This document shows positions 6,418-64,000 of a stretch of DNA of 64,000 nucleotides, in pieces. A program made the position numbers and the translations under genes. The notes below the pieces were generated by a model. It did not search any database, was not told the origin of the DNA, and saw only the letters and a program-made list of their open reading frames with translations. The DNA is from Candidatus Poribacteria bacterium. Lineage in GTDB: Bacteria; Poribacteria; WGA-4E; PCPOR2b. Position 1 is the first letter of the stretch. Every line of letters begins with the position of its first letter. The stretch spans positions 3,456,001-3,520,000 of the forward strand of contig OZ220744.1 in NCBI GenBank assembly GCA_965116925.1, in the 5' to 3' direction.

Positions 6418-6446
6418 TTGACAATGGTCAAAAAGTTTGGTATAAT
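6418..6446 (+). promoter_or_regulatory. Consensus sigma70 promoter (leader copy 1)
   Basis: TTGACA(6418-6423)-17 bp-TATAAT(6441-6446). Confidence 0.85.
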
Positions 6447-6451
6447 TCCCC

Positions 6452-6568
6452 CGTCTTGATAAAACAAGGCGAAGAAATACCCATCAGAATATCTGCGTGG
6501 ATCTACCCCGGATGGGGCGGTATCCAGAGGAAAGGGCCCTCTTGATACTGCTCTGTTCGGGGTTTTTT
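6452..6568 (+). ncRNA. Putative attenuator leader RNA, copy 1 (antiterminator-like hairpin overlapping a terminator)
   Basis: 5' hairpin CGTCTTG-ATAAAA-CAAGGCG; core GGATCTACCCCGGATGGGGCGGTATCC (6499-6525); 3' arm GATACTGCTCTGTTCGGGGT plus a T tract pairs with the core. Confidence 0.7.
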
Positions 6569-6587
6569 GTTTTAGGAAAGGGCAATG

Positions 6588-6626
6588 ATGCAACATAGAG
6601 ACTTTTGGGATTCAATCATCGAATAG
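6588..6626 (+). pseudogene. Truncated copy of the DUF2292-like ORF
   Basis: MQHRDFWDSIIE* versus intact MRHKDFWDSIIEQ... at 8941; followed by a host repeat fragment also seen near 3987-4025. Confidence 0.75.
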
Positions 6627-6869
6627 GTGGTTGATAGGGGTTCGCTTTTAACCGTTCAACCTAACCTGCTGAACTATGTTTTTCTGTGGAGTCCGACTGA
6701 GCTTCGGGTTGTGCCGAACCGATCTGAGGGGAAGGGGTTAACGCCAGACGATGAAGCTGGCCATTGAGAAGTTGAACAACATCAACCAGAGTATTATCAC
6801 GTTCGACGATCATATCCAGCAATTAGAGGAGAAAGTTAAGTAACCCATCATTAAGAAGGAGAAATTAAA

Positions 6870-7505
6870 ATGCCACTGACTGTTGCAGGACCGAGACGGT
6901 TGGGTAGTTTGGAAAAGGATGTAATTAATTTTGTTTTTGATCACACGATTGATCCGGATGAGTTGTGGATTACGATTCCTGAGAATATCATTTATCCGAA
7001 TGATTGGGGAAGTGGGGCCTATCAGGCACCGGACTTGATTAAGATCAGTCGGGCGGCGCATCTTCATACTGACGACTTAAATTGGCATTCGACCATAGAG
7101 AACACCGATTGGACGAATATCAATAACTTTGAATATGTGGGACGGCTTGTCCATGAAGCTTGTCATCACTGGCAAAGGATTCACGACCGATATAATAATG
7201 CCGGGACGGACTATACATTTAATGGACAGATGTTAGCGAATCTTGATTTTGCGAACAAGGAGCAACATGCGTCGGCTGCACAGATTTACCTTATCGTGAA
7301 ATGGCAGCTAGAGCGCGGTATCCAGCTTGTGAATTTGACGGATGGCACGGCTTATGGAATCCAGAACATCGGGCCCATGAATAGGATGCTTCGGATCGAA
7401 TTGATTCCGCTTGACGACGATAACAATCGGATTGTGACTCAGGGAGTTGCAAACTCAATCGTATCGGATTTCGATGCGTATTTGGAGGAACTAAGAGGTG
7501 TTTAG
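6870..7505 (+). CDS. HExxH zinc metallopeptidase-like protein P1
   Basis: MPL..GPRRL..LEK..VF..IDP N-terminus; LVHEACHHWQ; downstream KEQHASAAQ; no signal peptide. Confidence 0.8.
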   Translation: MPLTVAGPRRLGSLEKDVINFVFDHTIDPDELWITIPENIIYPNDWGSGAYQAPDLIKISRAAHLHTDDLNWHSTIENTDWTNINNFEYVGRLVHEACHHWQRIHDRYNNAGTDYTFNGQMLANLDFANKEQHASAAQIYLIVKWQLERGIQLVNLTDGTAYGIQNIGPMNRMLRIELIPLDDDNNRIVTQGVANSIVSDFDAYLEELRGV

Positions 7506-7603
7506 CCTGTTAACCTCTTGAAGCCAAAAGCTACAAATCTCCTAACACGCGAAGGAGATTATAACATTACTTGCTTACGTTGGAGTGTCCGACAGTTTTC
7601 GAG

Positions 7604-8407
7604 TTAATCCTTTGTCGTAAATGTGATAGTGGTTTCGAGTGTCTGACACCCAGTATCCTGAACTAAGAGATCCATAACGTAGGTTGTACCATGGCGAAGG
7701 AGAGAACACTGATTCGGGGGTGTGAGTGTCACCGTGATAAGTTTATCCCATTGAGCCGTCCAACCGAGTGTTGGGCCCTCTTTAGGGCGGAGGTCAAACT
7801 GAGATGTGGCGATGTTGCCCTTTGAAAACGTGATAGTGATTCCGTCCCGATTCAAGGGGGCAGGGGCAATGTCCACATCACCATCATATATGCTGGCAAA
7901 TGCAATGACAAGTTTTGTAGGATCAAAAGCAGATGCAGCTTTCCCAGGTCTGGTCTTTGTCGTAAATGTGATAGTACCGTCAGTTTTCCAAGAGCTGAAA
8001 TCCTGAACAACAAAATCAATGGTGTAGGTCATACCGGGGCGAAGTACAGAACACAGATGCGGCGGCGTGAGTGTTACCGTTTGTCCATCTGCATACCACG
8101 CCACCCTCCAGTCGAGCGAAGTGCCTTCTTTATCGTGTAGGTTAAAGTGAGATAGAGAGACTCGTTCAGAGAATATAATACGTATTCCTTCACGATTCAA
8201 TGGTTCAGGGTCTACGTCAGTATCACCATCAGTGATGCTGCTTGCTGTAATGATAGGTCCTGAGAGGTCCAAAGATGCCGCTGCTTGAGACAGTTGGTTT
8301 GCAACGACTTTAATTTCGGCGAGATCTTCGTTCGGCTCTGAGACCGGGTTTTGGTTCCCGCAGCCGAGAATCAGGATAGTGAACATCAATAGAGTGAGTT
8401 TTTTCAT
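7604..8407 (-). CDS. Lipoprotein L1 with two Ig-like (Big_5/SbsA-like) repeats
   Basis: MKKL...LILGC lipobox; repeated DG..DVDPEPLNR.GI.I.FS...W....VTLTPP...Y.....QD....ITFTTK. Confidence 0.8.
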   Translation of the reverse strand: MKKLTLLMFTILILGCGNQNPVSEPNEDLAEIKVVANQLSQAAASLDLSGPIITASSITDGDTDVDPEPLNREGIRIIFSERVSLSHFNLHDKEGTSLDWRVAWYADGQTVTLTPPHLCSVLRPGMTYTIDFVVQDFSSWKTDGTITFTTKTRPGKAASAFDPTKLVIAFASIYDGDVDIAPAPLNRDGITITFSKGNIATSQFDLRPKEGPTLGWTAQWDKLITVTLTPPNQCSLLRHGTTYVMDLLVQDTGCQTLETTITFTTKD

Positions 8408-8520
8408 GGGAGACCTCCTTACGTGAAACGTGATGGGTAAAATGCCATTCCCCCAATGTATCGGGGACGAGTCGGGATGTGAAAACGTGAAAATGGGAAT
8501 TTCACATTAGTTTCCTTATT

Positions 8521-8628
8521 TATAGTAGATTTTAGAATTAATGAGACACTCTAAATCGGCGCAGTTACAAACAGCGCCTACCAAACATGGGGAGCGAAAG
8601 TGCCCGTTTATTTTTTGAATTCACTATA
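8521..8628. repeat. 108-bp dispersed repeat, copy of 3799-3906
   Basis: Near-identical sequence by direct comparison. Confidence 0.8.
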
Positions 8629-8747
8629 GTTCATTGGTTCAACTGAAGCAGGTAAATCTTAAATAATTAATTGCAACTCACTGGGGTTTACTTCAGAAAA
8701 AAGCAGGGTTTCTCCCCAAAAAAATTAGCGATAGTCAAAAAGTTTGG

Positions 8748-8922
8748 TATAATTCTCTCGTCTTGATAAAACAAGGCGAAATGATACCCATCGGAATATC
8801 TGCGTGGATCTACCCCGGATGGGGCGGTATCTTTGTTGGTTCATCAGTTCATTGGTTCATTAGTTCATTGAATGAGCCGGTGGACCGATGAACGCACATA
8901 GCTGCTCTATTTGGGGTTTTTT
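8748..8922 (+). ncRNA. Putative attenuator leader RNA, copy 2
   Basis: TATAAT at 8748 (decayed -35 TTAGCG); same 5' hairpin; core at 8806-8831; terminator loop expanded by GGTTCATT octamers; 3' arm GCTGCTCTATTTGGGGTTTTTT. Confidence 0.7.
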
Positions 8923-8940
8923 GTTTTAGGAAAGGGCACG

Positions 8941-9120
8941 ATGCGACATAAAGACTTTTGGGATTCAATCATCGAACAGATTGAGCGGTTCAGGCGAGAA
9001 AACCGGTTCGGCACGGTGCAGCTGAAGATTCGGAATCATGAGATTGTGCATTTTGAGATGACCCCCGTGATGCGGGGAGAGCTGCCAAAACGGCGGAATC
9101 AGAGGGAGAGCGCTGAGTGA
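8941..9120 (+). CDS. Small DUF2292 (YezD)-like protein
   Basis: 59 aa MRHKDFWDSIIEQIERFRRENRFGTVQLKIRNHEIVHFE..., resembling the FG-x-V-x-I-x-V-x(3)-VV-x-IE pattern; starts just after the terminator T tract. Confidence 0.6.
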   Translation: MRHKDFWDSIIEQIERFRRENRFGTVQLKIRNHEIVHFEMTPVMRGELPKRRNQRESAE

Positions 9121-9431
9121 AACGTGAACAGGAGAAACCGGTGATATGGGGAAATATGGTTATTTTGCTAGCTATGAACACGAGTTGACGGATCCAAGAC
9201 TGAGAGAACGCTATGTTTGTGCAGAATCCACGCAACGTTCACGGGGTACTCGAAGGACTGAGTACTTTTAGCCAGACTCACGTAGGTGAGCTGCCACTGA
9301 CCGATCCATCGTGGAGTGTCAGGCAGCGTGGATGAGTGCTGCTCGACAGTCAGGTAGATGTGCCCGCCCCATTACCAGTTTCAGCCGCCGATAATAGCGA
9401 CAGGCGCGTAGATCCACTTTCACGCTTTATA

Positions 9432-9887
9432 CTAGGGCTTTGGCTTCGTCCGAAACCGTATCTCAAACCTGAAGCTATGACATGCGAGATCTTGAACGTA
9501 CATCTTAATCACGTACTCAGTATCAAATTCCAACTCCTGATCGGCAATGGGAGTTAACATTACAGCTGATGTGACAACGTCCGATAGACCGGTACCCGCC
9601 CAATGAAGGGGCTTTCCTTCACGGAAGAAATCAACCTTACGCATCTTGAGATCTTCATCAAAATCGAAGCGCAAACCTCTATTAGCCAGTTCAGGGTCGA
9701 CGTCATCTTGTCCGTCCCACACGGTGGCGAATATGATTTGCAAATCTATATCAACCCGCAAGTGTTCACCTGATGCTACGGTGGGTATGTGTTCTTCGAT
9801 AATGGGTTCTGATTCTTCGACTACCGACGTTTCAGTGCCGCAGCCGAGGATCAGAATGGCGAACATCAATAGAGATAGTTTCTTCAT
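9432..9887 (-). CDS. Lipoprotein L2, single Ig-like domain
   Basis: LILGC lipobox; paralog of L9 and L11. Confidence 0.8.
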   Translation of the reverse strand: MKKLSLLMFAILILGCGTETSVVEESEPIIEEHIPTVASGEHLRVDIDLQIIFATVWDGQDDVDPELANRGLRFDFDEDLKMRKVDFFREGKPLHWAGTGLSDVVTSAVMLTPIADQELEFDTEYVIKMYVQDLACHSFRFEIRFRTKPKP

Positions 9888-9926
9888 GAGTTTCCTCCTT
9901 AGGGCTCGAGCAAGTAGTGGAGCTTT

Positions 9927-10385
9927 TTAGCGTGGCTTCGTCCGAAATTTCATCTGTGTGTTCACGGCATTACATGCGGAACCTTGAGCATATATTTGAA
10001 GCCAGTACTCAGTGTTGTATTCCAACAATCGACTGTCCTCCATAGGCATAAGATGGATTTGGTTTCCAATGTCCCAGTCATCAACGATATCGCGAGGGGA
10101 CCAATTGGGAAGTTCACCGGCAATACGCCCAAATACAACGTAGTACATACTAAGAGGTTCTGTAAATTCGATGATAATTCCGTCGCGATTCAACAGTTCA
10201 GGATCGGCATCAACCTCGCCGTCAAGCACGTTACCGCCTACGATTTGCGGCGGAGCGATGGGTTCCTCTTCTATCACAACGGGTGGTGTTTCTTCGATAA
10301 TAGGCTCTGGCTCTTCGATAATGGTTGTCTCGTTGCCGCAGCCGAGAACCAGAATAACGAACATCAAGAGAGAAAGTTTTTTCAT
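9927..10385 (-). CDS. Lipoprotein L3, single Ig-like domain
   Basis: LVLGC lipobox; paralog of L10 (shared WSPRDIVD.WDIGNQ.HLMPMEDSRLLEYNT). Confidence 0.8.
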   Translation of the reverse strand: MKKLSLLMFVILVLGCGNETTIIEEPEPIIEETPPVVIEEEPIAPPQIVGGNVLDGEVDADPELLNRDGIIIEFTEPLSMYYVVFGRIAGELPNWSPRDIVDDWDIGNQIHLMPMEDSRLLEYNTEYWLQIYAQGSACNAVNTQMKFRTKPR

Positions 10386-11566
10386 GGGATACCTCCTGAA
10401 GAATAATGCGTAAGAGGAAACGGAACGGCAATCTCCGTTCCCTACGAAGGGTAGGTCTTAAATAATTACATGCCGTTCACTTCGATTTGTTTCAAAAAAA
10501 GAGGGAGGCTCTCTGGAACGATTGAAGGATTTTTAGATGCCACTGTTGCAATTACTACTTTGCGATGGGCGTTTACCAACTTCTCTTGAGAGAGATACTG
10601 ACGTGCCTACAGCACAGGTTCGTAATTGGGGTTAATATGGAAAATCAACGAAGTCACACGCTGTCCACTATGACTTTTACAGCATTTTGAGATGACCCCC
10701 GTGATGCGGGGAGAGCTGCCAAAACGGCGGAATCAGAGGGAAGGCAATGGCAATTTATAGAGACGGAAAATTGGTAGGCGTGGGAGGGAACATTGCCCCA
10801 ACGATCTTCACCGATGGTGTGACGCTGGAAGGCGATGGCTCGAAGAACAACCGGGTGCGGGTGAAGAACGCTGGAATTAACACCGTCCATCTTGGCGAGA
10901 ATGCCGTAACCTTGGCGAAGCTAGCGCAGGGTGAAGCGAATCGGGTGCTTGTATACGATAGCACCGGGGCACTGGTCAAGGGGCAGAGGTATGCCCCCAA
11001 AGCAGTTTGGTGGGGCTTCAAGCAAAGGGGTCGTGTTGAGCCACAGCGAGCATTTTCAGCAGATTATGCCCATACCGCAATTCTGAGGTTCAAGAAATCA
11101 ACCCCCGATGAGAACTATTTTGGTGGCGATAGCTTGGGCACTATTATGCAAGGCACCCCGGCACCGGGCAGTTTCATTAGTGCAAAGGTGGATACGGGTT
11201 ATCCCGGTGGGGCTAATGCGATCCTCACGTTACACGCCAACCAGTTTTTCCAACTACCGGCAGGGGTTTGGAACCTATTTTGTCATGTGGATGATTCCAG
11301 TGCCGGTGGAGCAGATGGGCACCTGTCATTGATGCAAATCAGGAGCGGCAACGATGATATGGTGTTATTTCACACGGCAGGTTGGCAAAATTCATCGGCG
11401 TTAGGTGGAAGCACCTATAATTTGAGCGTCCCCTTGCTGCCAACAGATGGTACAGAGTATTTTTATCTTCGTTTCCGGAAATCAAGCAGCGGTAGTGCTA
11501 ACTATGCCTACTTTTTGGTGTTGGAGAAGTTGCAGTGAGACGTGATGCGTGAAAGAGAACACGCCC
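10381..11566. repeat. About 1.2 kb segmental duplication (second copy about 15259-16479)
   Basis: Intergenic element, peptidase stub, DUF2292 3' half and fibre-like gene all recur in the same order. Confidence 0.85.
10747..11538 (+). CDS. Phage tail-fibre/appendage-like protein, copy A
   Basis: TDGVTLEGDGS...GINTVHLGENAVTLAKL fibre-type segment and beta-rich C-terminus; 263 aa. Confidence 0.55.
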   Translation: MAIYRDGKLVGVGGNIAPTIFTDGVTLEGDGSKNNRVRVKNAGINTVHLGENAVTLAKLAQGEANRVLVYDSTGALVKGQRYAPKAVWWGFKQRGRVEPQRAFSADYAHTAILRFKKSTPDENYFGGDSLGTIMQGTPAPGSFISAKVDTGYPGGANAILTLHANQFFQLPAGVWNLFCHVDDSSAGGADGHLSLMQIRSGNDDMVLFHTAGWQNSSALGGSTYNLSVPLLPTDGTEYFYLRFRKSSSGSANYAYFLVLEKLQ

Positions 11567-11598
11567 CACGACCGTGGAGCCACTTTTGCGCTTCATAC

Positions 11599-12471
11599 TT
11601 AGGGCTTTGGCTTTGTTGCAAACACTATCTTGAAATCCGAGGTCCAACATTGGAAATCCTGAACGAAGATATCAATTTCGTATACGGTATCGAATTCCAA
11701 CAACGGGACTCCCTCGGCGGGGGTTATCTGTATACGTCTTTCCATATTCTCGCGCTCAACTAGACCGCGAGGTAACCAACCGAGAGACGCACCCTTATGA
11801 AGCCGGAGGTCAATCTCATACTTTCTGATAGGTTCATTAAATTCAAAATGAATACCATTTGCATTGAGCGGTTCAGGGTCAACGTCAGCCTGTCCACCAA
11901 ACACAGGGGCATCCACAACGAATGGAACACCGGGCTCGAACCGGAAGCGTTCACCTAATGCCACAACGGGTATCCGTTCTTGCATCGCGGGTTCTGGTTG
12001 CCTGACCACAGATCTCTGCGGCTTTGTCCGAAACTGTATCACGATATCTGTGTAATCGCAGTCATAATTTTGAGCGATTATCACAATCTCATACTCGGTG
12101 TCGTGTTTGAACATGCCGGCATCAACGCCATGGATGGGCCATATAAACACATGTTCTGTCTTTCCCCATCGGTGAGCTTCAGGAGAGTCCCAAAGGAGGC
12201 GCGTGCCGTCCTTCTCTCGGAGCGTAACCGAATGCCTATAGACAGGTTCCTTAAATACAAAGAGAAATCCGTCGCTCAACAGTTCAGGATCAACATTAAC
12301 CTCTCCGTGTTTCACGGTGCCTTTTGCAACTAGTGGGTGACCGATAGGTTCATCTTCCATCACAACGGGTGGTGGTTCTTCGATAACAGGTTCTGGTTCC
12401 TCGACTATAGGCGTTTCGGTGCCGCAGCCGAGTATCAGGATAACGAACATCAAGAGAGAAAGTTTTTTCAT
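11599..12471 (-). CDS. Lipoprotein L4, two Ig-like domains
   Basis: LILGC lipobox; close paralog of L7. Confidence 0.8.
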   Translation of the reverse strand: MKKLSLLMFVILILGCGTETPIVEEPEPVIEEPPPVVMEDEPIGHPLVAKGTVKHGEVNVDPELLSDGFLFVFKEPVYRHSVTLREKDGTRLLWDSPEAHRWGKTEHVFIWPIHGVDAGMFKHDTEYEIVIIAQNYDCDYTDIVIQFRTKPQRSVVRQPEPAMQERIPVVALGERFRFEPGVPFVVDAPVFGGQADVDPEPLNANGIHFEFNEPIRKYEIDLRLHKGASLGWLPRGLVERENMERRIQITPAEGVPLLEFDTVYEIDIFVQDFQCWTSDFKIVFATKPKP

Positions 12472-12600
12472 GATACCTCCTTGGGTTTATTAGTTCAGTT
12501 GAGGTAGGTAGGTCTTAAATAGTTACATCCCACTCACTGCGATTTGTTTCAAAAAAAGAGGACGGGGTTTTATCCGTGTCAACAACATAGGAGCAATCAA

Positions 12601-13362
12601 ATGCCATTAGCGATGGAGGGACCGCGCCCATTGAGTCCTTTGGAACGGGAGGCGTTTCGTTTGGTGTTTTGGGATTCAATTGATCCGTGCGATGTTTATG
12701 TATCAGTTTTTGATGATATTTACAGGGAAGGTGGATATTACAGTGGGGCTGGTAGTATTCAGATTAATAGATCGACGTTCCTAGATGCCAATCTGCATAT
12801 GAATTCGACACATGCGAATACGGATATATTGAAACCTGCGAATATACGGTGTCTATCTACGCTGATACATGAGTCTACACACCATTGGCAATGGACTCAC
12901 AAGAAGTATACAGATGCTGGACCCTACCGTCCTGTACCATATGACTTTAGTTTTGAAGAATTGCAGAAACTGAAATTTATGAAAGAATACCATGAGTTCG
13001 ATCCCCTGTTACCGTCAGAAAAGCCCCTGCCAGAGGGTCACGAGCTCCTGAAAGAGCAACATGCAGCCGCAGCCCAAGTTTATTTTGTCATTGCTTGGCA
13101 GTTGGAACATTCCTCTGATCGTTTAGTGAATCTTACAGAGGGGGCTACGGGTAAGAACATTGTTGGGCCGGTAGAACGTTATCACAGAATTCATGCTATC
13201 CCGGATGCCCATCCACTTGATCCCGTTCCACCTGCCCATCCATTTAATCCCGCTCCGCCTGGACGTAGGGTGTCTCGCCAATATGCAATAGATATAGCCA
13301 ATGATTTTAATGTGTATCTAGTTGATTTGCGTTCTGGAGGACAAAAACAATGGGCTGGTTGA
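12601..13362 (+). CDS. HExxH metallopeptidase-like protein P2
   Basis: MPLAMEGPRPLSPLERE; LIHESTHHWQ; KEQHAAAAQ; RBS AGGAG. Confidence 0.8.
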   Translation: MPLAMEGPRPLSPLEREAFRLVFWDSIDPCDVYVSVFDDIYREGGYYSGAGSIQINRSTFLDANLHMNSTHANTDILKPANIRCLSTLIHESTHHWQWTHKKYTDAGPYRPVPYDFSFEELQKLKFMKEYHEFDPLLPSEKPLPEGHELLKEQHAAAAQVYFVIAWQLEHSSDRLVNLTEGATGKNIVGPVERYHRIHAIPDAHPLDPVPPAHPFNPAPPGRRVSRQYAIDIANDFNVYLVDLRSGGQKQWAG

Positions 13363-13429
13363 ATCCACCTTATCCTTCTAGTTTCAGCATAGGAGTTTTT
13401 GCTGACATAAACAGCATAGGAGAAATCAA

Positions 13430-14320
13430 ATGCCATTAGCGATGGAGGGAACTCGTGTCTTGAGTCCTTTAGAGCGAGATGCAGTTAAATTAGTGTTTAA
13501 GGACGCAATTGACCCGTGGGATATTAGCTTGACGGTTGTTGAGTCTCTTGAAATTGAGTTGGAGAGGCATGCCTTGCTAGATATTAACAAAAGAGTTGGC
13601 AATCAGTTTAGACCGCTGTCATCTATTCAACCACAGGAAATTATCGATCGGATTAAACAGCCACCACCTATTGAACAGCAATTACCACCAATTGAACGGC
13701 AGCCGGCAACATTTAACCAATCGGTACAGGCGGCTTCTACCTACGATGGTGATGGAAAAATTAGGATTAGCAGGTCTGCCTTCCCGCATACCGATGCTCT
13801 GAATATAAATTCGACTCGTGCGGATACGACGATATTCAAGCCTGCGAATATGCACTATCTATCTACATTGATACATGAGTGCACCCACTACTGGCAAGAG
13901 GTGTATGGTCGACACACATTCTACAAGAATTTCTACGATTTTACTCGATATCAATTGCTGAAACGGGATGTCCCGGAGCTCTCGGCAAACCAACATGCGT
14001 CTGCGGTCCAAATCTATTTTTTAATTGAGTGGCAGTTGGCGCACCGGCCAAAAGGTTCTGATGTAAACCTGACGAGTCGGTCACCAAATCCAGAGCATAA
14101 TGTAGGACCTGTAGATCGTTTTCGTAATATTGACATGCGTATCCATAATTCGGGTAAAGGCACTTCGCGTATTGTTAAATATCAACATGCGCGTGAATCG
14201 ATACACAATTATTTTGGTTGGCTTCTTGTTGAGTTGCGGTATGGATGGAAAGCAGTTTGTCAGGGAAAGGAGTCGTTCGCGAAAAACAAACGCCAAGCTT
14301 GGGTGCCCACTTGGGCTTGA
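13430..14320 (+). CDS. Metallopeptidase paralog P3 (long form; putative third-ligand Glu replaced by Asn)
   Basis: LIHECTHYWQ but ANQHASA instead of EQHASA; Pro/Gln-rich insert. Confidence 0.75.
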   Translation: MPLAMEGTRVLSPLERDAVKLVFKDAIDPWDISLTVVESLEIELERHALLDINKRVGNQFRPLSSIQPQEIIDRIKQPPPIEQQLPPIERQPATFNQSVQAASTYDGDGKIRISRSAFPHTDALNINSTRADTTIFKPANMHYLSTLIHECTHYWQEVYGRHTFYKNFYDFTRYQLLKRDVPELSANQHASAVQIYFLIEWQLAHRPKGSDVNLTSRSPNPEHNVGPVDRFRNIDMRIHNSGKGTSRIVKYQHARESIHNYFGWLLVELRYGWKAVCQGKESFAKNKRQAWVPTWA

Positions 14321-14378
14321 TTCACAGGCTGATTTTGACGCATATCCACTGGTGTACGGTTTCATCAATGTCGAGGGG

Positions 14379-15263
14379 TTACTCCCTCTTTGTAAAAAAT
14401 GTCAGACTCTTGCTCTCCCCTCCAATGCAGTGGTAACCCAATAGATACATGTCGAGGTGGTACGTTGCACCTTTTTGGAGCATAGAACACGCATACGGTG
14501 GTGGTGTCAGTTTCACTGTCCGTGGATTGCGCCATTCAGCAATCCAGCCAAGCGGTAAGCCATCTCTAAGATGGGAAGCCCATTCAAGGACATCAACCGT
14601 TTTAAGATCGTGATTAAATGCGATAAGGGTGAGGTCAAAGTCGCTCTCAGCAATGTTGCTATCAAACACGATATTGATTCCATGCCGATTCAACCATTCG
14701 GGGTCGACATCAATCCATTCTTTTATGTTAATTGATTCAATGAAGGCTGGTTGGAAATCCAAAGCGGGTGCTGCTGGTACCGCGGGCTCTGTCGTAAAGG
14801 TGATCGTACCTTCAGTTTTCCAAGAACTGAAATCCTGAACAACAAAATCAATGACATAAGTAGTGCCATTGTTAAGCCTGTCACACGGATTTGGTGGAGT
14901 CAATTTTACCGCTTGTCCATCTGGATGCCACTCTGTCTTCCAGTTAAGCGAATAGCCTTCTTCATGAATTAGGTTGAAGTGAGATAGAGAGATTCGCTCA
15001 GAAAATGTGATAAGTACTCCGTCACGATTCAATGGTTCAGGGTCTACGTTAGTAGCACCATCGGCGACGCTACTTTCTGTAATGACCGGTACTAAGATGT
15101 CCAAAGATTCCGCCGCTTGAGACAGTTGATCTGCAATGGCTTGGATTTCGGCGAGATCTACGTTCGGTTCTTCGATAACGGGTGGAGGCTGCTCGACCAC
15201 AGGCGTTTCGGTGCCGCAGCCGAGTATCAGGATAACGAACATCAGTAGAGATAGGTTTTTCAT
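14379..15263 (-). CDS. Lipoprotein L5, two Ig-like domains
   Basis: LILGC lipobox; close paralog of L8. Confidence 0.8.
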   Translation of the reverse strand: MKNLSLLMFVILILGCGTETPVVEQPPPVIEEPNVDLAEIQAIADQLSQAAESLDILVPVITESSVADGATNVDPEPLNRDGVLITFSERISLSHFNLIHEEGYSLNWKTEWHPDGQAVKLTPPNPCDRLNNGTTYVIDFVVQDFSSWKTEGTITFTTEPAVPAAPALDFQPAFIESINIKEWIDVDPEWLNRHGINIVFDSNIAESDFDLTLIAFNHDLKTVDVLEWASHLRDGLPLGWIAEWRNPRTVKLTPPPYACSMLQKGATYHLDMYLLGYHCIGGESKSLTFFTKRE

Positions 15264-15659
15264 GGGATACCTCCTGAAGAATAATGCCCCGATAAATCGG
15301 GACAGACTGTGAAATGTGATGCGTAAGAGGAAACGGAACGGTGATTTCCGTTCCCTACGAAGCGTAGGTCTTTAATAGTTACATGCCATTCACTTAGATT
15401 TGTTTCAAAAAAAGAGGGAGGCTCTCTGGAACGATTGAAGGATTTTTAGATGCCACTGTTGCAATTACTACTTTGCGATGGGCGTTTACCAACTTCTCTT
15501 GAGAGAGATACTGACGTGCCTACAGCACAGGTTCGTAATTGGGGTTAATATGGAAAATCAACGAAGTCACACGCTGTCCACTATGACTTTTACAGCATTT
15601 TGAGATGACCCCCGTGATGCGGGGAGAGCTGCCAAAACGACGGAATCGGAGGGAAGGCA

Positions 15660-16451
15660 ATGGCAATTTATAGAGACGGAAAATTGGTAGGCGTGGGAGG
15701 GAACATTGCCCCAACGATCTTCACCGATGGTGTGACGCTGGAAGGCGACGGCTCGAAGAACAACCGGGTTCGGGTGAAGAACGCTGGAATTAACACCGTC
15801 CATCTTGGCGAGAATGCCGTAACCTTGGCGAAGATAGGGCAGGGTGAGGCGAATCGAGTGCTTGTGTACGACAGCACCGGTGCGCTGGTGGAAGGGCAGA
15901 GGTACGCCCCCAAAGCGGTTTGGTGGGGCTTGAATCAAAGGGGTCGCATCGAGCCAAAGCGGCCGTTTTCTGCGGATTATGCCCAGACAGCAATTCTAAG
16001 GTTCAAGGGATCAACCCCTGATGAGATCTATTTCGGTGGCGATAGTTTAGACGATATTATGCAACCCGCTCCGACATCGGACAGTTTCATTGCTACAAAC
16101 GTGGATAAGGATTATCCCGATGGGAGCAATACCGACCTAACACTGCAAGCCAACGAGGTCTTCCAACTGCCAGCAGGGGTTTGGAATCTGTTTTGTCATG
16201 TGGATGATTCCAGTGCCGGTGGAGCAAATGGGCACCTGTCGCTGATGGGGGTCATGAGCGGCAACGATGATCTGATTTTATTCCATACAGCAGGACGGCA
16301 GAATGCATCGGCTTTAGGTGGAAGTACCTATAATTTGAGTGTGCCCTTGCTACGAACAGATGGTACGGAGTATTTCTATCTTCGTTTTCGGAAGTCAAGC
16401 AGCAGAAGTGCTCGGTATGCATATTTTCTATTGTTGGAGAAGTTGCAGTGA
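15660..16451 (+). CDS. Phage tail-fibre/appendage-like protein, copy B
   Basis: 263 aa; termini nearly identical to copy A, centre diverged. Confidence 0.55.
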   Translation: MAIYRDGKLVGVGGNIAPTIFTDGVTLEGDGSKNNRVRVKNAGINTVHLGENAVTLAKIGQGEANRVLVYDSTGALVEGQRYAPKAVWWGLNQRGRIEPKRPFSADYAQTAILRFKGSTPDEIYFGGDSLDDIMQPAPTSDSFIATNVDKDYPDGSNTDLTLQANEVFQLPAGVWNLFCHVDDSSAGGANGHLSLMGVMSGNDDLILFHTAGRQNASALGGSTYNLSVPLLRTDGTEYFYLRFRKSSSRSARYAYFLLLEKLQ

Positions 16452-16718
16452 GACGTAATGCGTGAAATAGAACACGCCCAATGGGGGAAATGGAGTAGGG
16501 CGGACGGCGATGAAGATTAACCAGTCCATCATCGAGCGTCAAGCGGAGCGGTTGACTGATGAACCCCAAGCGGCGGAGGTGCCGGAATCGTTGCCAGTCC
16601 AACCGATTGAAGGAGATGGCAATAATAGCGAAAGCCCTGCTGTGGAGTAGAATTGAGACGAGTATGGGTTAGCATTCACAAGAATGATTAACATCAACAA
16701 AAATAAGGAGAATTTATC

Positions 16719-17345
16719 ATGCCATTAGTTGTGCAAGGTCCTCGTTCATTTAGTCCTCTTGAGAGAGATGCGTTTGATCTGGTGTTTTGGGATTCGATTA
16801 ATGTGGCTGATTTGGAGATTCAGATTGTCGAAAGTTTGGAGGGGGCTTTTGCTCGGTATGACCGGGCAAATCGTAGAGTTCGCATTGCTGCTAACCAGTT
16901 TCCTCATACTGACAATTTGAATACTAATTCATATCGTGGGAACACGGATGAATTTAAGCCGGGAAATATGTGGTATCTCAATACACTGATCCATGAATGT
17001 ACGCATGATTGGCAAGCTGAGAAAAATCTATTCATGGCACCTCTTAAGGGAGAGTATAGCTTTACGAGAGAAGATTTATTGAGTTTATTCCTTGGCAGAG
17101 AACAACATGCGTCTGCTGCAGCCACTTGGTTTGTAATTGGCTGGCAGCTTCAGTATTCCAGTAATGACGTGAATCTGACGACATGGGCGGAAGAGACAAA
17201 GGTAGGAACTGTTAATCGCTATCGTCGGATTCATAATATTCCTCATAGTCAGGCGGAACCGCGTCAGCGTATCCTTTCTCAATCGGAAGCAGTCCCAATT
17301 GCGAATGATTTTGTGCGTCTGTTGAATCATTTACGGGAAGCCTGA
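16719..17345 (+). CDS. HExxH metallopeptidase-like protein P4
   Basis: MPLVVQGPRSFSPLERD; LIHECTHDWQ; REQHASAAA. Confidence 0.8.
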   Translation: MPLVVQGPRSFSPLERDAFDLVFWDSINVADLEIQIVESLEGAFARYDRANRRVRIAANQFPHTDNLNTNSYRGNTDEFKPGNMWYLNTLIHECTHDWQAEKNLFMAPLKGEYSFTREDLLSLFLGREQHASAAATWFVIGWQLQYSSNDVNLTTWAEETKVGTVNRYRRIHNIPHSQAEPRQRILSQSEAVPIANDFVRLLNHLREA

Positions 17346-17369
17346 GAAGTTGTCGCAGATTAAACGAGG

Positions 17370-21283: not shown

Positions 21284-21344
21284 GTCCACCTTATCCTTCT
21301 TAGCATAGGATTTTTACTCATCTCAACAACATAGGAGGAATCAG

Positions 21345-51357: not shown

Positions 51358-51372
51358 ACTAACTGGAAAGAC

Positions 51373-52666: not shown

Positions 52667-52806
52667 TGACATGGATTAAAAAAGAGAGGGGGCAAGGTAG
52701 TAGGCATACTCCGTATGCCGTAACCTCCGTCCTAATATGGAGAAATAACTCACGTCCGGGGGGCGACTCAATGAACCAATGAACCAATGAACCAACTGAC
52801 TTAAGG

Positions 52807-61142: not shown

Positions 61143-61336
61143 CTGTTAAAGTAGTAGGCACACTCCGTGTGCCGTAACCAATGTTTTTCATGTTCCAATC
61201 TGGAGTTGAGCTCGTAGGTTGGGTTGAACACCAGTGAAACCCAACGCCTATCAACAAAGCAAAAACAGCTTTCACACTTTCTATCTTTACCGAAAGGAGG
61301 GAAGCGTGGACTTCCACATTTCACGCTTCACACACA

Positions 61337-61687
61337 ATGATACAACGAAAATCCGGAGAATTTAATGCAACCGCGGTGGATCTGGTATGGCAGCCGAAGG
61401 TCCAAGGCGCGGCACTACTGGTATTGGTCTCACTCGATCAGGCACCATCAACCGCTGCGAATATCGAAGTGACCTACGACAGCGCAGACGGTGAGAATTT
61501 CGACACCGTTGTTGAAGGGACAGACCCTGCGACATCTCCCGCTGCGGCGGACCTGACATTCTTGGTGGGGAATCCGCTGCCACTGCTCCGCGGCGATGCC
61601 GTGCGGGTCAAGTACACAAATCCCGACGCTAGAAGAGTCAACGTCACTATCATCGGGACGGACGATTATCTGATAGGAGGCAGCTGA
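61337..61687 (+). CDS. Hypothetical phage structural protein
   Basis: 116 aa beta-rich ORF within the tail region. Confidence 0.55.
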   Translation: MIQRKSGEFNATAVDLVWQPKVQGAALLVLVSLDQAPSTAANIEVTYDSADGENFDTVVEGTDPATSPAAADLTFLVGNPLPLLRGDAVRVKYTNPDARRVNVTIIGTDDYLIGGS

Positions 61688-61844
61688 AAAACCGTGCGTT
61701 GACAGGTATAAAGTTCCCCCCTGATAAGGGGGGCTAGGGGGGTTAGAGGGCAAAAAAATAAGAAATCCACCCCTCGCGCGTAACATAATTCTTACCCATC
61801 ACGCATCACCTATCACGCATCAATCACATGACAGGGAGAACCGA

Positions 61845-63638
61845 ATGGCTACATTGTGGCGAACCGAGAACTTTTCGAGTGGCATCCACACAAAACCCGC
61901 CCGCCTCGAAGGCGGCGAACGCTACGCCCGTGACATCGAGAACCTCCGCATCACGCATAACGGATTTATGAAATTGCGAGGCGGCTTTGAACCGATCGGG
62001 GGAAGCGGGCCCGACATCACAGGGATTGCCGCCACCACCCGTTACCTCCTTTTATTGCGAAGCGACGGCTATCTATACATCAGGGATATAAACAATCTGA
62101 ACGCCGAATCCCGCGTAGCAAACGTCGACCCCGCTACCGCCGGCTTGTCAGGGCGAATCTCTCTCGCATCACCCACCCCCGATTATCTGATAGTGACCAG
62201 CGAAGGCGACGACCTCGGCTTTTGGATAGACCTCAACAAGGAATCTACCACCTTCAAACACGCCTTTCAACTCGGTTTAGACGTGCCCCACGCCGCTCAG
62301 GTAGCAGCCATTGGACACACCACCACCGGGACCGGGTTTTCAGGCGATGGCTGGCTCCGCTACAGGTTGACATGGCTCCGAGACGCACCCGGCGAGCCGT
62401 TTGATGGCGCAGAAAGCAGTCCATCAGGCACCGTCGATGTCAATGTTATCGGCGGCGGCACAATCAACATCAACAATATCCAATTCCCGACCGACCCCCA
62501 AGTCACCCACCTCGCAATCTATCGTAATCGGGAACTGGTGCCTGAACAGAGCGATCTCACCCTCAACGCCGCCGACCTGCACCGCATCGCAACCGTTTCA
62601 AGGGAGAACCGCATTGTCGGATACATCGACGATAACAGCGCAGATTTTGACAACGGCGTCGAGATTGAACTTTTCAATAACCGATTGCCACCGGGCGTAA
62701 AACAGATTCATTTCCACCAAAAAAGGATTTTCGCAGCAGCAGGCAACAGGCTCGTATATAGTGCTTTCAATCACCTAACCCCCCAATATTGGCGGTTCAC
62801 ACCCACCAATTCTCAGCGCAGACCCGACGCCGGAGATATTACCTTCTGCGCCAGCCACCGTGAAGTCCTTTTATTCGGTGCACAGGACGGGCTCTTCAGA
62901 CTCGACGGCACGGACAACTTCGATTTTCAGGTTGATCAGATCTCAGGGGCTGGACCACGCGACGGATACAGCTGGGGGGTGTTCGAGAACACACTCGGCT
63001 TTGTCTCAGGAAGGGGCTTCCATGTGACCGACGCATCGAACAGCGATTTAGTCAGCGACGAAAGCCTTGACCAGTTCTTTACCGGGCAGCAGATAGAGCG
63101 GGGGCTCGTCGGTTTTTTCTCCGATAACACCCTCATCTTTTCCGTGATACTTCGCCCCATAGACGGCGGGGACACCAAGCAGAGCTACTTTCTTTTCGAC
63201 GATCGACACTGGACAAAATGGAGTGCCGCAAATGTCCTACAATTCGCGACCATCAACGGGCAGGTGTATATCGCAGGGAGTGACCGATTGCATCGGATTA
63301 AGTGGGAAGAAGGCGACAACACCGATACTGCCCTGGACTGGGCGTATGAATCAAACCTAATTGACGGCGACGCATTCGGCATACAGTCGGATCTCAAGCG
63401 ATTTACAGAACTCTATATCAACGCCGCAGCAGGCAGTCGCATCGTCCTCAAGACATGGAAGGACGACGATGAGATGCCCGTCAAGCAAACCTTTACGACG
63501 CGGGACAGCACCGACAGCAACGTTCAAACTGTTCTCATCGAACGAATCGCACGGCGGCTCAGGTTTCGCCTCGAAGGCGTGGGACCCGTAACGATTCGGG
63601 GCTTGTGCCTTGAAGGTAACGCAGAAAAACGGGTATAA
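61845..63638 (+). CDS. Putative tail nozzle/stabilization protein (tubular B or P22 gp10-like)
   Basis: NFS.G...A.DIEN.R..G..K.R.G N-terminus, beta-propeller-like body, KRF.EL...LRFRLEG C-terminus. Confidence 0.65.
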   Translation: MATLWRTENFSSGIHTKPARLEGGERYARDIENLRITHNGFMKLRGGFEPIGGSGPDITGIAATTRYLLLLRSDGYLYIRDINNLNAESRVANVDPATAGLSGRISLASPTPDYLIVTSEGDDLGFWIDLNKESTTFKHAFQLGLDVPHAAQVAAIGHTTTGTGFSGDGWLRYRLTWLRDAPGEPFDGAESSPSGTVDVNVIGGGTININNIQFPTDPQVTHLAIYRNRELVPEQSDLTLNAADLHRIATVSRENRIVGYIDDNSADFDNGVEIELFNNRLPPGVKQIHFHQKRIFAAAGNRLVYSAFNHLTPQYWRFTPTNSQRRPDAGDITFCASHREVLLFGAQDGLFRLDGTDNFDFQVDQISGAGPRDGYSWGVFENTLGFVSGRGFHVTDASNSDLVSDESLDQFFTGQQIERGLVGFFSDNTLIFSVILRPIDGGDTKQSYFLFDDRHWTKWSAANVLQFATINGQVYIAGSDRLHRIKWEEGDNTDTALDWAYESNLIDGDAFGIQSDLKRFTELYINAAAGSRIVLKTWKDDDEMPVKQTFTTRDSTDSNVQTVLIERIARRLRFRLEGVGPVTIRGLCLEGNAEKRV

Positions 63639-63668
63639 ATCCACAACACACTACAAAAGGAGATTACA

Positions 63669-64000
63669 ATGCCATACCACGATGAAGGATTCGGAGATAC
63701 CGAATTTGACCCCAAAAACAACCCACATGACAGAAAAGTGGTCGAGCGATACGGCGGCAAGAAAGCAGCAGCGCAACTCAAGAGCAATAAGCAGGGCAGT
63801 TTTCCGAGCGCGAAAGATTGGGCAAAGATGTTTATACCGCAAGCCAACGATCCGAATCATGTAAAAGCGGGTAAAATTATCACCTTAATTACCGCTGCGG
63901 CTGCCGGCGCACATTCGTTTTGGCCCGCTGCTGCGACACCCGCTGCTGCGACGCCACCAGCTTCAACACCATCGGCAAGTCCGGGAGAAGTGTTTGGTCC
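63669..64000 (+). CDS. Hypothetical (possible ejection/internal virion) protein, runs off right edge
   Basis: RBS AAGGAG, ATG 63669, frame open to the window end (MPYHDEGFGD...). Confidence 0.6.
   Translation, partial: MPYHDEGFGDTEFDPKNNPHDRKVVERYGGKKAAAQLKSNKQGSFPSAKDWAKMFIPQANDPNHVKAGKIITLITAAAAGAHSFWPAAATPAAATPPASTPSASPGEVFG

Follow-up and report, generated by a model that had tools for sequence, protein, structure and literature searches.

A podovirus-type gene block that descends with its Poribacteria hosts and may be fixed in the chromosome

Podovirus-type genes in the chromosome of a sponge-symbiont Poribacteria raise the question of whether they belong to an ordinary prophage, to a remnant, or to a particle that now serves the bacterium. 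The original prediction, drawn from a 64,000-nucleotide stretch of that chromosome (the window), was a possibly domesticated element resembling a gene transfer agent (GTA). The phage genes are genuine, as indicated by HMM matches for TerL, portal, adaptor, and lysozyme and by the HK97 fold predicted for the capsid. A conserved block from TerL to a CI-like repressor—~38 kb in the source genome (G000) and 34–46 kb across species (37.6, 38.5, 33.6, 39.6, and 45.9 kb in five)—contains TerL, portal, a scaffold candidate, the capsid, an SU10-type adaptor, a nozzle candidate, ejection-like proteins, and a TerS-like gene. It sits within a ~99 kb tRNA-adjacent island (window 6.3k to window-equivalent 105.4k); in genome G011, the left flank is joined directly to window-equivalent 105432. 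The lysis cassette and collagen fibre gene lie 17–22 kb upstream of the block, beyond variable cargo (Table 1).

Table 1. Features of the island, in window coordinates; those beyond 64000 are window-equivalent (G000:C1 position − 3456000)
Feature	Coordinates	Strand	Evidence or remarks
Paralogue array, island left end	6870..25901	both	lipoproteins (−), HExxH proteins (+), 263-aa ORF twice
Lysis-type cassette	26509..29328	+	lysozyme, small hydrophobic proteins, signal/beta-barrel-like ORF
Small hydrophobic-segment proteins	26509–26799, 26955–27215, 29104–29328	+	sequence
Lysozyme	27172–27798	+	PF00959, 23.2 bits (cut-off 22.3); phrog_13211
Signal/beta-barrel-like ORF	27795–28676	+	within lysis-type cassette
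Fibre region	30320..32169	+	collagen ORF, small ORF upstream of it, lectin-like ORF
Collagen-repeat fibre-like protein	30587–31609	+	PF01391, E 1.6e-10
Lectin-like ORF	31693–32169	+	PF18022 at cut-off
Variable cargo	32111..47324	both	Pfam and PHROGs
Three paralogous ORFs in cargo	35145–39633		
DUF6259/dockerin/FlgD_ig protein, 1095 aa	40764–44051	−	
GT1-like gene	44043–45275		in cargo
Coiled-coil ORF upstream of TerL	47409..47804	−	phrog_9415, E 7.1e-14
TerL	48740–50536	+	phrog_38, E 1.9e-43; left edge of block conserved in five species
Insert between TerL and portal	50677..53295	both	no Pfam/PHROG match
Two 162-aa lipoproteins of array family	50677–51165, 52807–53295	−	tblastn against whole genome
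Three ORFs in insert	51373–52666	+	no Pfam/PHROG match
Portal	53459–55081	+	PF16510, 39.6 bits (cut-off 26.1); phrog_156, E 1.4e-14
Membrane-anchored coiled-coil ORF, KRFDDTN repeats	55177–55491	+	sequence; weak Rz-like PHROG match
MITE	55522–55669		repeat copies; after the preceding ORF
Scaffold candidate	56002–56541	+	precedes capsid gene; acidic N-terminal stretch, helical by eye; no Pfam or PHROG family match
Major capsid protein, predicted HK97 fold	56650–57861	+	AlphaFold model, pLDDT 82.7
Conserved 264-aa protein	58054–58848	+	between capsid and adaptor
Head-to-tail adaptor, SU10 type	58951–60045	+	PF24175 SU10_adaptor, 31.9 bits (cut-off 27)
FGE-sulfatase (SUMF1-like) protein	60294–61142	+	PF03781, E 2.3e-62; between adaptor and nozzle candidate
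Conserved 116-aa ORF	61337–61687	+	80–93% aa identity in four congeners
Nozzle/tail-hub candidate	61845–63638	+	phrog_511, E 4.5e-5 (weak)
Ejection-protein-like ORF, 321 aa, Ala/Pro-rich coiled-coil	63669–64634	+	sequence; leaves window at 64000
Second ejection-like ORF	64708–65655	+	
TerS-like gene	65840–66307	+	phrog_4102, E 5.8e-16; PF20901, 21.2 bits (under cut-off 27)
LRR lipoproteins and second lipoprotein family	66749–76355	+	LRR_4 matches
PIN_3, AAA_21, GNAT fusion, small ORFs, O-like gene, 264-aa ORF	76524–85389	−	PF13304, PF13470, PF13673 matches
O-like/HTH_36 replication gene	84038–84595	−	phrog_678, E 1.6e-5
CI-like HTH_3 and Peptidase_S24 repressor	85657–86370	+	PF00717, E 4.3e-21; phrog_4, E 9.9e-35; block right edge
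DUF3800 gene	87522–88397		
WD40 array	88847–103159		WD40 matches
HTH_3-M78/DUF4411 pair	103639–105317		
tRNA-Gln and tRNA-Glu, island right end	105551–105703	−	

The particle ORFs had been described as intact, and this holds for TerL, portal, adaptor, and lysozyme on HMM evidence and for the capsid on a structural model; the scaffold is assigned from position and sequence, and the nozzle from a weak PHROG match. TerL is 89–93% identical in four congeners (omega 0.08–0.10), and its G99, K100, T102, D204, and D205 are invariant across two genera; we take G99/K100/T102 and D204/D205 to be the Walker A and B motifs. Amino acid identity is 88–97% for portal (omega 0.05–0.10) and 92–98% for capsid (omega 0.04–0.09). 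The capsid sequence matched no Pfam or PHROG family and none of 50,697 phage records; its model returned 267 Foldseek matches at E ≤ 0.001, the top ones being phage capsids and encapsulins, and its Atlas label is "phage major capsid protein family." On this predicted structure, the protein is an HK97-fold major capsid protein. Homologs of the adjacent 264-aa protein (33–39% identical in genus g11, 35% in a 38-kb contig from a third genus) invariably adjoin the capsid gene, as does the homolog of the 116-aa ORF in that contig; a PDB sequence search with the 264-aa protein gave no match. For the nozzle candidate, all 30 nearest Atlas clusters are viral, and the nearest Pfam-bearing cluster is PF11134 (0.95), presumably the P22 gp10 family, which serves as a lead only. 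This gene has a divergent allele in G007, G004, and G002 (40–54% amino acid identity); taken together with the first ejection-like ORF, identity of the tail-tip genes to these genomes is 39–54%, a divergence suggestive of gene exchange with a related phage pool. The FGE-sulfatase protein, 69–73% identical between species, was considered as a DGR target and rejected, as the genome has no reverse transcriptase and there is no template repeat.

The genes described as host-type and wedged among structural genes are indeed present (the FGE-sulfatase and FlgD_ig proteins and coiled-coil ORFs), and two minus-strand lipoprotein genes of a host family are inserted between TerL and portal as well. The host-type label is doubtful, because homologs of the dockerin/FlgD_ig and glycosyltransferase genes lie near related clusters in two other genera, and the compact relative that forms the 38-kb contig has a glycosyltransferase-like gene. 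The coiled-coil ORF upstream of TerL has a homolog between portal and scaffold in G004. Cargo genes include nucleotide-sugar genes, two Stf0 sulfotransferases, a HicB-like gene, and a GHMP kinase. The interval between fibre module and TerL measures ~15 kb in G000 and G005, 37 kb in G007, and 70–78 kb in G004 and G002; in the latter two it holds unrelated DNA, with no common alignment of at least 1.5 kb. Further left, the match of the collagen ORF to tail-fibre PHROGs is confined to its collagen part, and homologs of the cassette ORFs starting at 26955 and 27795 occur near the related cluster in g11. The region at 6.9–25.9k was considered as a phage module and rejected; all-against-all BLASTP and the sequences themselves identify lipoprotein and HExxH paralogs that form an array of their own (omega 0.2–0.7 between species). 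Its minus-strand lipoproteins contain one or two Big_5-like Ig domains (weak Big_5 matches), and their family has further copies elsewhere in the genome.

At the left junction, the reported lack of integrase, repressor, replication gene, and tRNA was confirmed, as was that of a terS before terL. Extended to the whole element, four of these absences proved to be wrong: a TerS-like gene, a repressor, a replication gene, and tRNAs were all found downstream, and they had seemed missing because the window ended too early. The TerS-like gene is located past the tail genes. Between species, the O-like gene is 88–97% identical (omega 0.08–0.20) and the CI-like repressor 93–97% (omega 0.04–0.07). The same downstream check found neither integrase nor att site: PF00589 has three matches genome-wide and PF00665 (rve transposase) five, none of them inside the island; PF00239 (serine recombinase) has none in the genome; and the boundary zones contain no shared direct repeat of at least 12 bp and no partial tRNA copy.

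The element occupies the same locus, with the same gene order, in all four complete carrier congeners (G005, G007, G004, and G002; five species with G000), and core ORFs are all full length in these four. Measured against a single 20-kb host flank, median dS of nine core genes versus 11 host flank genes is 0.26 versus 0.40 for G000 and G005, 0.61 versus 0.53 for G007, 0.67 versus 0.60 for G004, and 0.70 versus 0.56 for G002. Median omega is 0.09–0.17 for core and 0.07–0.08 for flank genes; across all four pairings with G000 the nine core genes span 0.04–0.31, and the closely related G004 and G002 give 0.08 for TerL, 0.05 for portal, and 0.11 for capsid. These data show that the block diverges at about the host synonymous rate under strong purifying selection. 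As originally described, most spacers of the structural region (50.5k–66k) contain host repeats (12 of 14, compared with 21 of 29 for the block overall and 20 of 22 in the host flank; spacers of at least 40 bp, positive if a stretch had at least five other genomic copies). Beyond G000, the MITEs at 58.85k, 64.6k, and 65.7k occur in G005 alone. At 55.5k, 66.3k, and 75.6k, G005 has an empty site, as do G007, G004, and G002 at 82.9k. The nesting of these insertions follows the host tree, itself based on one locus (the rpoB region), which supports long residence. Shared locus, host-like dS, low omega, and nested MITEs together bear out the predicted long residence with selection on particle genes.

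All six carriers fall within one 10-species clade of the rpoB-region tree (100/100), and none of nine genomes outside the clade is a carrier. Upkeep is not general, however, four of the 10 clade members having lost the element or retaining it in decayed form. Three of the four members without a capsid gene retain TerL as a pseudogene or short fragments: in G018, TerL contains a stop and portal-to-TerS is deleted while CI, LRR, lipoprotein, and WD40 genes are kept; in G008 and G014, TerL persists only as short fragments. No trace of the element was found in G001, and G003 contains remnants, as do G008 and G014. Across the phylum, the family appears in 17 of 176 genomes (e.g., 2 of 65 in genus g14). 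The conserved locus in carriers supports the original interpretation; this patchiness and the decay within the clade do not.

In our estimation, the chances are about even that the element is an old temperate Poribacteria podophage, chromosomally fixed, unable to excise, transmitted by vertical descent, and with its particle genes held by selection; any particles it now produces may be of use to the bacterium. A related cluster that persists in a second genus, g11, also favors this reading. Points against it are the constrained repressor and replication genes, the losses within the clade, the patchy family, the tail-tip exchange, and the compact relative and virome report described below. DNA damage would, by this account, induce self-cleavage of the S24 repressor; replication in place would be started by early genes transcribed leftward, among them the O-like initiator, and late genes would supply the proteins for head assembly. 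Headful packaging would probably begin at a putative pac site near terS and proceed rightwards into the LRR, defence, and WD40 genes, entering the neighboring chromosome because element DNA cannot excise. Most DNA inside the particles would then come from the chromosome, as it does in lateral transduction or GTAs. If so, the benefit would fall to the host rather than to a free virus, which would keep the genes intact.

It appears unlikely that the element is instead a living temperate phage of narrow host range, co-diverging with its hosts, moved by an unrecognized recombinase, host XerC/D-type enzymes, or homologous recombination, and selected through its own infectious cycle. Such a phage would account for the intact immunity and replication layout (CI divergent from a leftward operon with the O-like gene), the full particle gene set with lysis cassette, the swapping of tail-tip alleles, and the patchy family. 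Block length is also near that of the relative in the third genus, a free-standing contig of 38,183 bp without integrase; perhaps no member of the family relies on a recognizable one. A sponge virome study likewise describes, among purified particles, a "Poribacteria phage" that is homologous to integrated prophages (PMC8245591). However, the missing integrase and att site, the single locus in all four complete carriers, and the nesting of MITEs with the host tree count against this reading. Fast-turnover cargo of 15–78 kb splits lysis and fibre genes from the heads, with the full set spanning 60–126 kb, and contig word depth is flat over cargo and block in the two runs holding the sequence. 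Pattern-limited scans, which weigh little, found no relative in IMG/VR (capsid, TerL, and portal) or JGI metagenome contigs (capsid and portal).

A strict GTA, defined by particles that enclose random host DNA fragments shorter than the gene cluster itself, would be under host control, with the CI-like and O-like genes as co-opted regulators or leftovers; this reading seems quite improbable. The element is GTA-like in some respects, including vertical descent with host-like dS and low omega, the lack of a detected integrase, and lysis and fibre genes set apart from the head cluster. Genus g11 fits this pattern as well: a syntenic related cluster occurs in 8 of 10 species (capsid omega 0.03–0.05), and 60 kb around it contain no integrase, repressor, or replication family (46 ORFs searched with Pfam, 31 with PHROGs). 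However, retention of the replication gene and of a repressor whose S24 motif is intact speaks against a strict GTA, since both are kept under strong constraint (omega 0.04–0.20) and a living temperate phage would need them, whereas a strict GTA would not. The TerS-like specificity subunit and the losses within the clade also count against it.

Equally improbable is a cryptic prophage decaying slowly without present function, its phage genes merely lying between LRR, WD40, and lipoprotein cargo under selection: the genes kept by G018, the remnants in G008, G014, and G003, and the absence of clear transcription (small pieces only, some from relatives, in one RNA run) are consistent with decay, but hitch-hiking leaves omega unlowered, contrary to the core values against G000 and in G004/G002, the complete carriers keep every core ORF at full length, and the same pattern recurs in a second genus.

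Among known systems, Foldseek matches to the capsid model include structures of Escherichia phage SU10 (Kuravirus; PDB 7z48, 7z46, and 7z45), whose capsid ranks fourth (E 6.2e-9). The adaptor family is likewise shared. Differences from SU10 include an immunity region of temperate type; the capsid sequence does not match the SU10 capsid family, and the SU10_portal match, at 27 bits, falls below the cut-off of 30. A report on lateral transduction in Salmonella describes a P22 prophage that replicates and packages before excision (PMC8575938). The pac-type terminase pair within a P22/SU10-like head module resembles that of P22, as would in situ replication and headful packaging into the chromosome; P22, however, has an integrase and excises later, whereas in situ packaging would be the only route for the present element, because it has no integrase. 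Phage WO of Wolbachia belongs to another phage type and has a recombinase of its own. An account of its "eukaryotic association module" (PMC5062602) offers a parallel in an animal-symbiont prophage beside eukaryote-like repeat arrays. Here the adjoining arrays are those of LRR and WD40 genes, and a fast-changing region is common to both. Bacillus subtilis PBSX, also a chromosomally fixed defective prophage under a repressor, is SOS-inducible and makes particles with host DNA, but is myovirus-like with small heads. RcGTA of Rhodobacter, of siphovirus type, has lysis and fibre genes apart from its head cluster; the element shares this arrangement, vertical inheritance of phage-derived particle genes, and lack of an integrase with GTAs, but is podovirus-type, keeps TerS-like, CI-like, and O-like genes, and is lost in four of 10 clade members. 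Bobay, Touchon, and Rocha, in "Pervasive domestication of defective prophages by bacteria" (2014), reportedly found vertically inherited defective prophages under purifying selection. The Poribacteria element resembles these in its single locus in several related species, host-like divergence, low omega, lost mobility genes, and decay in some lineages; it differs in retaining a whole head, neck, and packaging set with its immunity region rather than scattered genes, and in belonging to an uncultured sponge-symbiont phylum in which a second genus has the same pattern.

The best fit to the data is an old temperate podophage that became fixed beside tRNA-Gln and tRNA-Glu genes without means of excision; vertical inheritance followed, during which it picked up MITEs, host lipoprotein genes, and fast-changing cargo. 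The window is part of a complete single-contig genome of 6.47 Mb (G000, the Candidatus Poribacteria bacterium under study). The particle ORFs described as intact in the original prediction were indeed found so: TerL, portal, capsid, adaptor, and lysozyme were identified, and the nozzle and scaffold were placed by leads only. TerL shows just 24–27% identity to phage records, from Mu-like and other phages. Searches of Pfam and PHROGs matched no tail tube, sheath, or tape-measure family, which fits a podovirus.

The 403-aa ORF between the scaffold candidate and the adaptor had no match in Pfam, PHROG, or phage records. A search of 1.8 billion proteins recovered 78 relatives; 41 capsid relatives queried against Pfam matched no family, and PDB-sequence profile searches with the capsid, the nozzle candidate, and the 264-aa protein returned nothing meaningful. 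An initial structural model on 18 aligned rows could not be used (pLDDT 40.2) and was superseded by one built from a 41-row alignment out of the 1.8-billion-protein search (pLDDT 82.7). The latter gave 267 Foldseek matches at E ≤ 0.001, headed by phage capsids and encapsulins, with the SU10 capsid at rank 4; on this predicted fold, the product is the major capsid protein. All 12 loci with capsid relatives in the species-genome collection are recorded under the name Candidatus Poribacteria bacterium.

Features of the element and its surroundings in G000. Positions above 64,000 are window-equivalent (position on contig G000:C1 minus 3456000).
Feature	Position	Evidence or remark
Host genes: two MR_MLE enolase-type, EamA, RraA-like, PhyH	1-6041	ordinary host content
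Paralogue array	6870-25901 (6.9k-25.9k)	no phage genes
Lysis-type cassette	26.5-29.3k	lysozyme PF00959 at 27172-27798
Collagen-repeat fibre-like gene	30587-31609	
Fibre-module-to-TerL interval	32111-47324	cargo
TerL	48740-50536	phrog_38, E 1.9e-43
Portal	53459-55081	PF16510, 39.6 bits vs cut-off 26.1
34-bp element, two identical copies	55079-55112; 61147-61180	after portal stop; after FGE-sulfatase stop
Scaffold candidate	56002-56541	assigned by position and leads
Major capsid protein	56650-57861	predicted structure and Foldseek
SU10-type adaptor	58951-60045	PF24175, 31.9 bits vs cut-off 27
Nozzle candidate	61845-63638	assigned by position and leads
Two ejection-protein-like ORFs	63669-64634 (across the window end); 64708-65655	
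TerS-like gene	65840-66307	phrog_4102, E 5.8e-16
LRR lipoproteins and second lipoprotein family	up to 76.4k	
Leftward set: 264-aa ORF, O-like/HTH_36 replication gene, GNAT fusion, AAA_21 ATPase, PIN_3	85.4k down to 76.5k	
CI-like repressor, rightward	85657-86370	HTH_3 and Peptidase_S24, E 4.3e-21; phrog_4, E 9.9e-35
DUF3800 gene	right of CI, before WD40 array	
WD40 array, eight tandem genes	88847-103159	between CI-like gene and tRNAs
HTH_3-Peptidase_M78 (ImmA/IrrE-type) gene and DUF4411 PIN-like partner	103639-105317	adjoins tRNA-Gln/Glu
tRNA-Gln and tRNA-Glu	105551-105703	

The original prediction had remarked on the lack of terS, repressor, replication gene, and tRNA, which holds inside the window and fails beyond it, as all four lie downstream. 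The CI-like gene, which carries a GDSM...K motif, is divergent from the leftward operon containing the O-like/HTH_36 gene, the two being separated by a 267-bp spacer (85390-85656). Of the modules to be sought downstream, replication gene and repressor were thus recovered, and integrase and att sites were not. PF00589 and PF00665 had three and five matches in the genome, respectively, and none in the island (the ~99-kb tRNA-adjacent region enclosing the element); PF00239 had none anywhere in the genome, and control genomes gave matches for these families. No direct repeat of at least 12 bp joins any candidate boundary pair, and the island contains no partial tRNA copy. The element therefore has the repressor and replication module of an ordinary temperate prophage but neither its att sites nor, within the scope of PF00589, PF00665, and PF00239, its integrase or transposase; a recombinase of an unfamiliar type may exist. 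The WD40 array is also present in the three carriers whose compared regions extend there (G005, G007, and G004) and is missing from the corresponding locus of G011. The M78/DUF4411 pair has a counterpart, with identities of 69% and 51%, next to a related cluster in G045, a genome of another family.

The limits of the island come from G011, a genome devoid of the capsid gene, whose left host flank is fused directly to window-equivalent 105432; this places the island at ~6.3k to 105.4k. Similarity at the DNA level to all four complete congeners carrying the element (G005, G007, G004, and G002) begins exactly at the TerL start (48748-48777) and stops at the CI stop (86371); the length of this TerL-to-CI block is stable at 34–46 kb (37.6, 38.5, 33.6, 39.6, and 45.9 kb in the five species). 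Because the block excludes the fibre gene and the sole lysozyme recognised, a full set spans 60, 61, 81, 115, and 126 kb in these species. The interval between fibre module and TerL is a turnover hot spot, measuring ~15 kb in G000 and G005, 37 kb in G007, and 70–78 kb in G004 and G002, the last two having no common alignment of at least 1.5 kb across it.

The array at the left of the island consists of about 12 minus-strand lipoproteins, with an LGCG lipobox, one or two weak Big_5-like domains, and a C-terminal TKPKP-type tail, interleaved with about nine plus-strand proteins bearing an HExxH(H)WQ-type motif; two 263-aa ORFs within it are 84% identical. Array genes evolve fast (omega 0.2–0.7), their order is reshuffled among species, and more copies occur elsewhere in the genome. 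The array may represent an effector/inhibitor or polymorphic surface system.

Two minus-strand 162-aa genes of the same lipoprotein family lie between TerL and portal. The other wedged genes were located where they had been predicted, namely an FGE-sulfatase gene (Pfam match at E 2.3e-62), a 1095-aa DUF6259/dockerin/FlgD_ig protein, and coiled-coil ORFs; the earlier label of host-type calls for caution, as homologues of the dockerin-type protein and of the GT1-like cargo gene occur near related clusters in two other Poribacteria genera, g11 and g14, and a compact relative in genus g16 has a GT-like gene as well. The FGE-sulfatase gene was rejected as the target of a diversity-generating retroelement: PF00078 has no match in the genome, and no nearby repeat of the gene's 3' part was found that could serve as template. 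The 34-bp element following the portal and FGE-sulfatase genes recurs many times in the genome, looks REP-like, and is possibly terminator-associated. Host repeats were found, as predicted, in most spacers of the structural region: between 50.5k and 66k, a sensitive search detected a stretch with at least five other genomic copies in 12 of the 14 spacers of at least 40 bp, with 100–260 copies in several. Repeat-bearing spacers number 21/29 over the whole TerL–CI block and 20/22 in the host flank. The HIP1 octamer, considered as the predicted octamer repeat, has 173 copies genome-wide but one in the region, and is thus not the repeat meant.

Within the genus of G000 (g1), the capsid gene is found in six of 20 species, G000 included, at 92–98% amino acid identity. 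All four complete carriers have the element on the same side of the same flank, in the common order array, lysis/fibre module, cargo, TerL through TerS, LRR genes, early genes, CI, and WD40. Divergence from G000 was estimated by the Nei-Gojobori method for 11 left-flank host genes and nine core genes (TerL, portal, capsid, 264-aa gene, adaptor, 116-aa gene, TerS, O-like, and CI), the core ORFs being full length in all four carriers. Relative to a host baseline drawn from one 20-kb flank, median dS for host and core genes was 0.40 and 0.26 in G005, 0.53 and 0.61 in G007, 0.60 and 0.67 in G004, and 0.56 and 0.70 in G002. Median omega was 0.07–0.08 for host genes and 0.09–0.17 for core genes (core range 0.04–0.31). 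Between G004 and G002, host dS is 0.04–0.25; TerL, portal, and capsid have dS of 0.06–0.10 and omega of 0.05–0.11.

Insertions in the block are nested: MITEs at 58.85k, 64.6k, and 65.7k are common to G000 and G005 only; those at 55.5k, 66.3k, and 75.6k have a clean empty site in G005; and the one at 82.9k has an empty site in G007, G004, and G002. A maximum-likelihood host tree from a single locus, 4.5 kb around rpoB, in 19 of the 20 species (G017 had no main match) places all six carriers in one 10-species clade (100/100), with none among the nine species outside it. The dS values, MITE nesting, and tree are consistent with a single ancient arrival and subsequent descent along with the chromosome. 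Together with synteny and low omega, they bear out the predicted long residence with selection on particle genes. Besides the normal rpoB, 15 of the 20 genomes have a second, shorter RNA-polymerase beta-type ORF (1042–1067 aa; 610 aa in G017), located in G000 at G000:C1:5271982-5272683.

TerL is intact in G005, G007, G004, and G002. In G018 it is 86% identical and interrupted by an in-frame TAG; G014 and G008 have short fragments only, those in G008 directly beside the flank; and it was not found in G019 (260 contigs, 95% complete). In G018, this TerL pseudogene is accompanied by lipoproteins, LRR genes, an intact CI, and a truncated O-like gene; the genes from portal to TerS are gone. Seven genomes have an intact CI gene, which is stop-bearing in G008, G016, and G003; the G003 remnant sits at the locus although this species falls outside the clade. 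Searches with capsid, CI, and TerL found no trace of the element in G001. The decay across sister lineages indicates that maintenance of the particle genes is real but not universal; a history in which particle, immunity, and replication genes are under purifying selection in most lineages and decayed in others fits best. An extra TerL fragment in G002 (~4306928-4307233; residues 28–128, two TAG stops), inside the cargo interval, suggests a second, destroyed copy or an internal rearrangement.

A capsid profile detects the family in 17 of 176 Poribacteria genomes and four of 31 genera (g1, 6/20; g11, 8/10; g14, 2/65; g16, 1/3). Genus g11 is a member of another family; its cluster is syntenic across the four genomes examined (three single-contig, one two-contig), mostly at 80–91% DNA identity. 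Its homologues of capsid, 264-aa gene, adaptor, nozzle candidate, portal, and TerL show 24–39% amino acid identity, and it additionally contains homologues of the lysis-region genes at 26955 and 27795 and of epimerase, LRR, GT, and dockerin-type genes. Between g11 species, the capsid is 96–97% identical, with dS of 0.43–0.53 and omega of 0.03–0.05. In 60 kb of one g11 genome (G042), no integrase, repressor, or replication family was identified among 46 ORFs (Pfam) and 31 ORFs (PHROGs).

The g16 relative (G080:C2) is a separate contig of 38,183 bp in a two-contig genome, tightly packed and nearly all on one strand; it encodes portal, TerL, adaptor, capsid, an HTH_36 protein, a 1643-aa protein, lysozyme, and a GT-like gene, and has one short host repeat. 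No integrase was found on it, nor a second copy of its first 20 kb in the G080 chromosome. This contig may be a free or episomal genome of the phage family. A real phage family exists; in its compact form it roughly equals the conserved block in size, and a recognisable integrase may always have been missing from it.

No direct sign of activity was found. The window's sequence is present, with no differences, in two runs; in bins free of repeats, their contig word depth was 11–14 and 84–90 in the cargo and 6–15 and 72–134 in the block, so that flat contig depth shows no excess in either run but is uninformative on packaging. An RNA run matched only small pieces and gave no evidence of transcription. 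Contig "joints" coincide with MITEs in every case and were interpreted as artefacts of repeats. Pattern scans of IMG/VR (capsid, TerL, and portal) and of JGI metagenome contigs (capsid and portal) found no relatives, which is weak evidence of absence for such short patterns. Parts of the sequence occur in runs labelled sponge metagenome; sponge and marine runs with a small share were not counted as habitat evidence. A sponge virome study of purified particles reports a "Poribacteria phage" that has homology to integrated prophages (PMC8245591), and no element of the present kind in Poribacteria was found in the accessible portions of the literature on Poribacteria prophages and sponge-symbiont gene transfer agents (GTAs).

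As the fixed podophage has no way to excise, induction would replicate it within the chromosome. Its likely mode of action, drawn by analogy from lateral transduction in phage P22 (PMC8575938), is as follows: CI would be cleaved in an SOS-type manner, replication would start in situ from the O-like gene, and headful packaging would begin near terS and proceed into the genes on its right; such packaging would make the element GTA-like in effect. A more ambitious reading, close to the "cargo particle" of the original prediction, is a fixed lateral-transduction engine that replicates in place, fills heads rightwards from a pac site near terS (window-equivalent 65.8k), and shuttles symbiosis genes. 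We consider this unlikely. A headful as long as the free relative (38.2 kb) would reach ~104k, the tRNA boundary of the island lying at 105.4k, which is arithmetic on two numbers and not a measurement; no head genes would enter the first headful, which would take up the LRR lipoproteins and defence genes together with the immunity region and the WD40 array.

Poribacteria are uncultured, dominant sponge symbionts with large sets of eukaryote-like proteins, and we know of no established route by which they exchange them. Were the lateral-transduction reading true, a captured podophage would shuttle these symbiosis genes between cells within the sponge, with a parallel system in a second genus. 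The element would be a particle system of phage origin that two genera have maintained across speciation, beside LRR/WD40 arrays, and as such offers a concrete, testable route of exchange. Should it be no more than a co-diverging phage, it nevertheless defines a podophage family specific to Poribacteria, and the case shows how an integrase-less prophage can become chromosomally fixed.

Among known systems, the fixed podophage shares with domesticated defective prophages (Bobay-type) its orthology in several species and purifying selection. As in GTAs, it is inherited vertically at a fixed locus with host-like divergence, here in one 10-species clade with four members lacking the capsid gene. 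A GTA in the strict sense has no integration, replication, or lysogeny genes of its own, and the CI-like S24 repressor and O-like gene are present and constrained; because repressor, replication gene, and TerS are retained, the element is on present evidence not a strict GTA. A cf-PICI was rejected because the element lacks an integrase or primase set and has the wrong size, and a tailocin because a capsid is present. The element would be a candidate for a podovirus-type element domesticated to form particles, separate from the small number of GTA lineages known so far. Compared with the Kuravirus SU10, its adaptor scores above the family cut-off, whereas the match to the SU10 portal falls below (27 bits vs 30), and its capsid is similar to that of SU10 in fold only.
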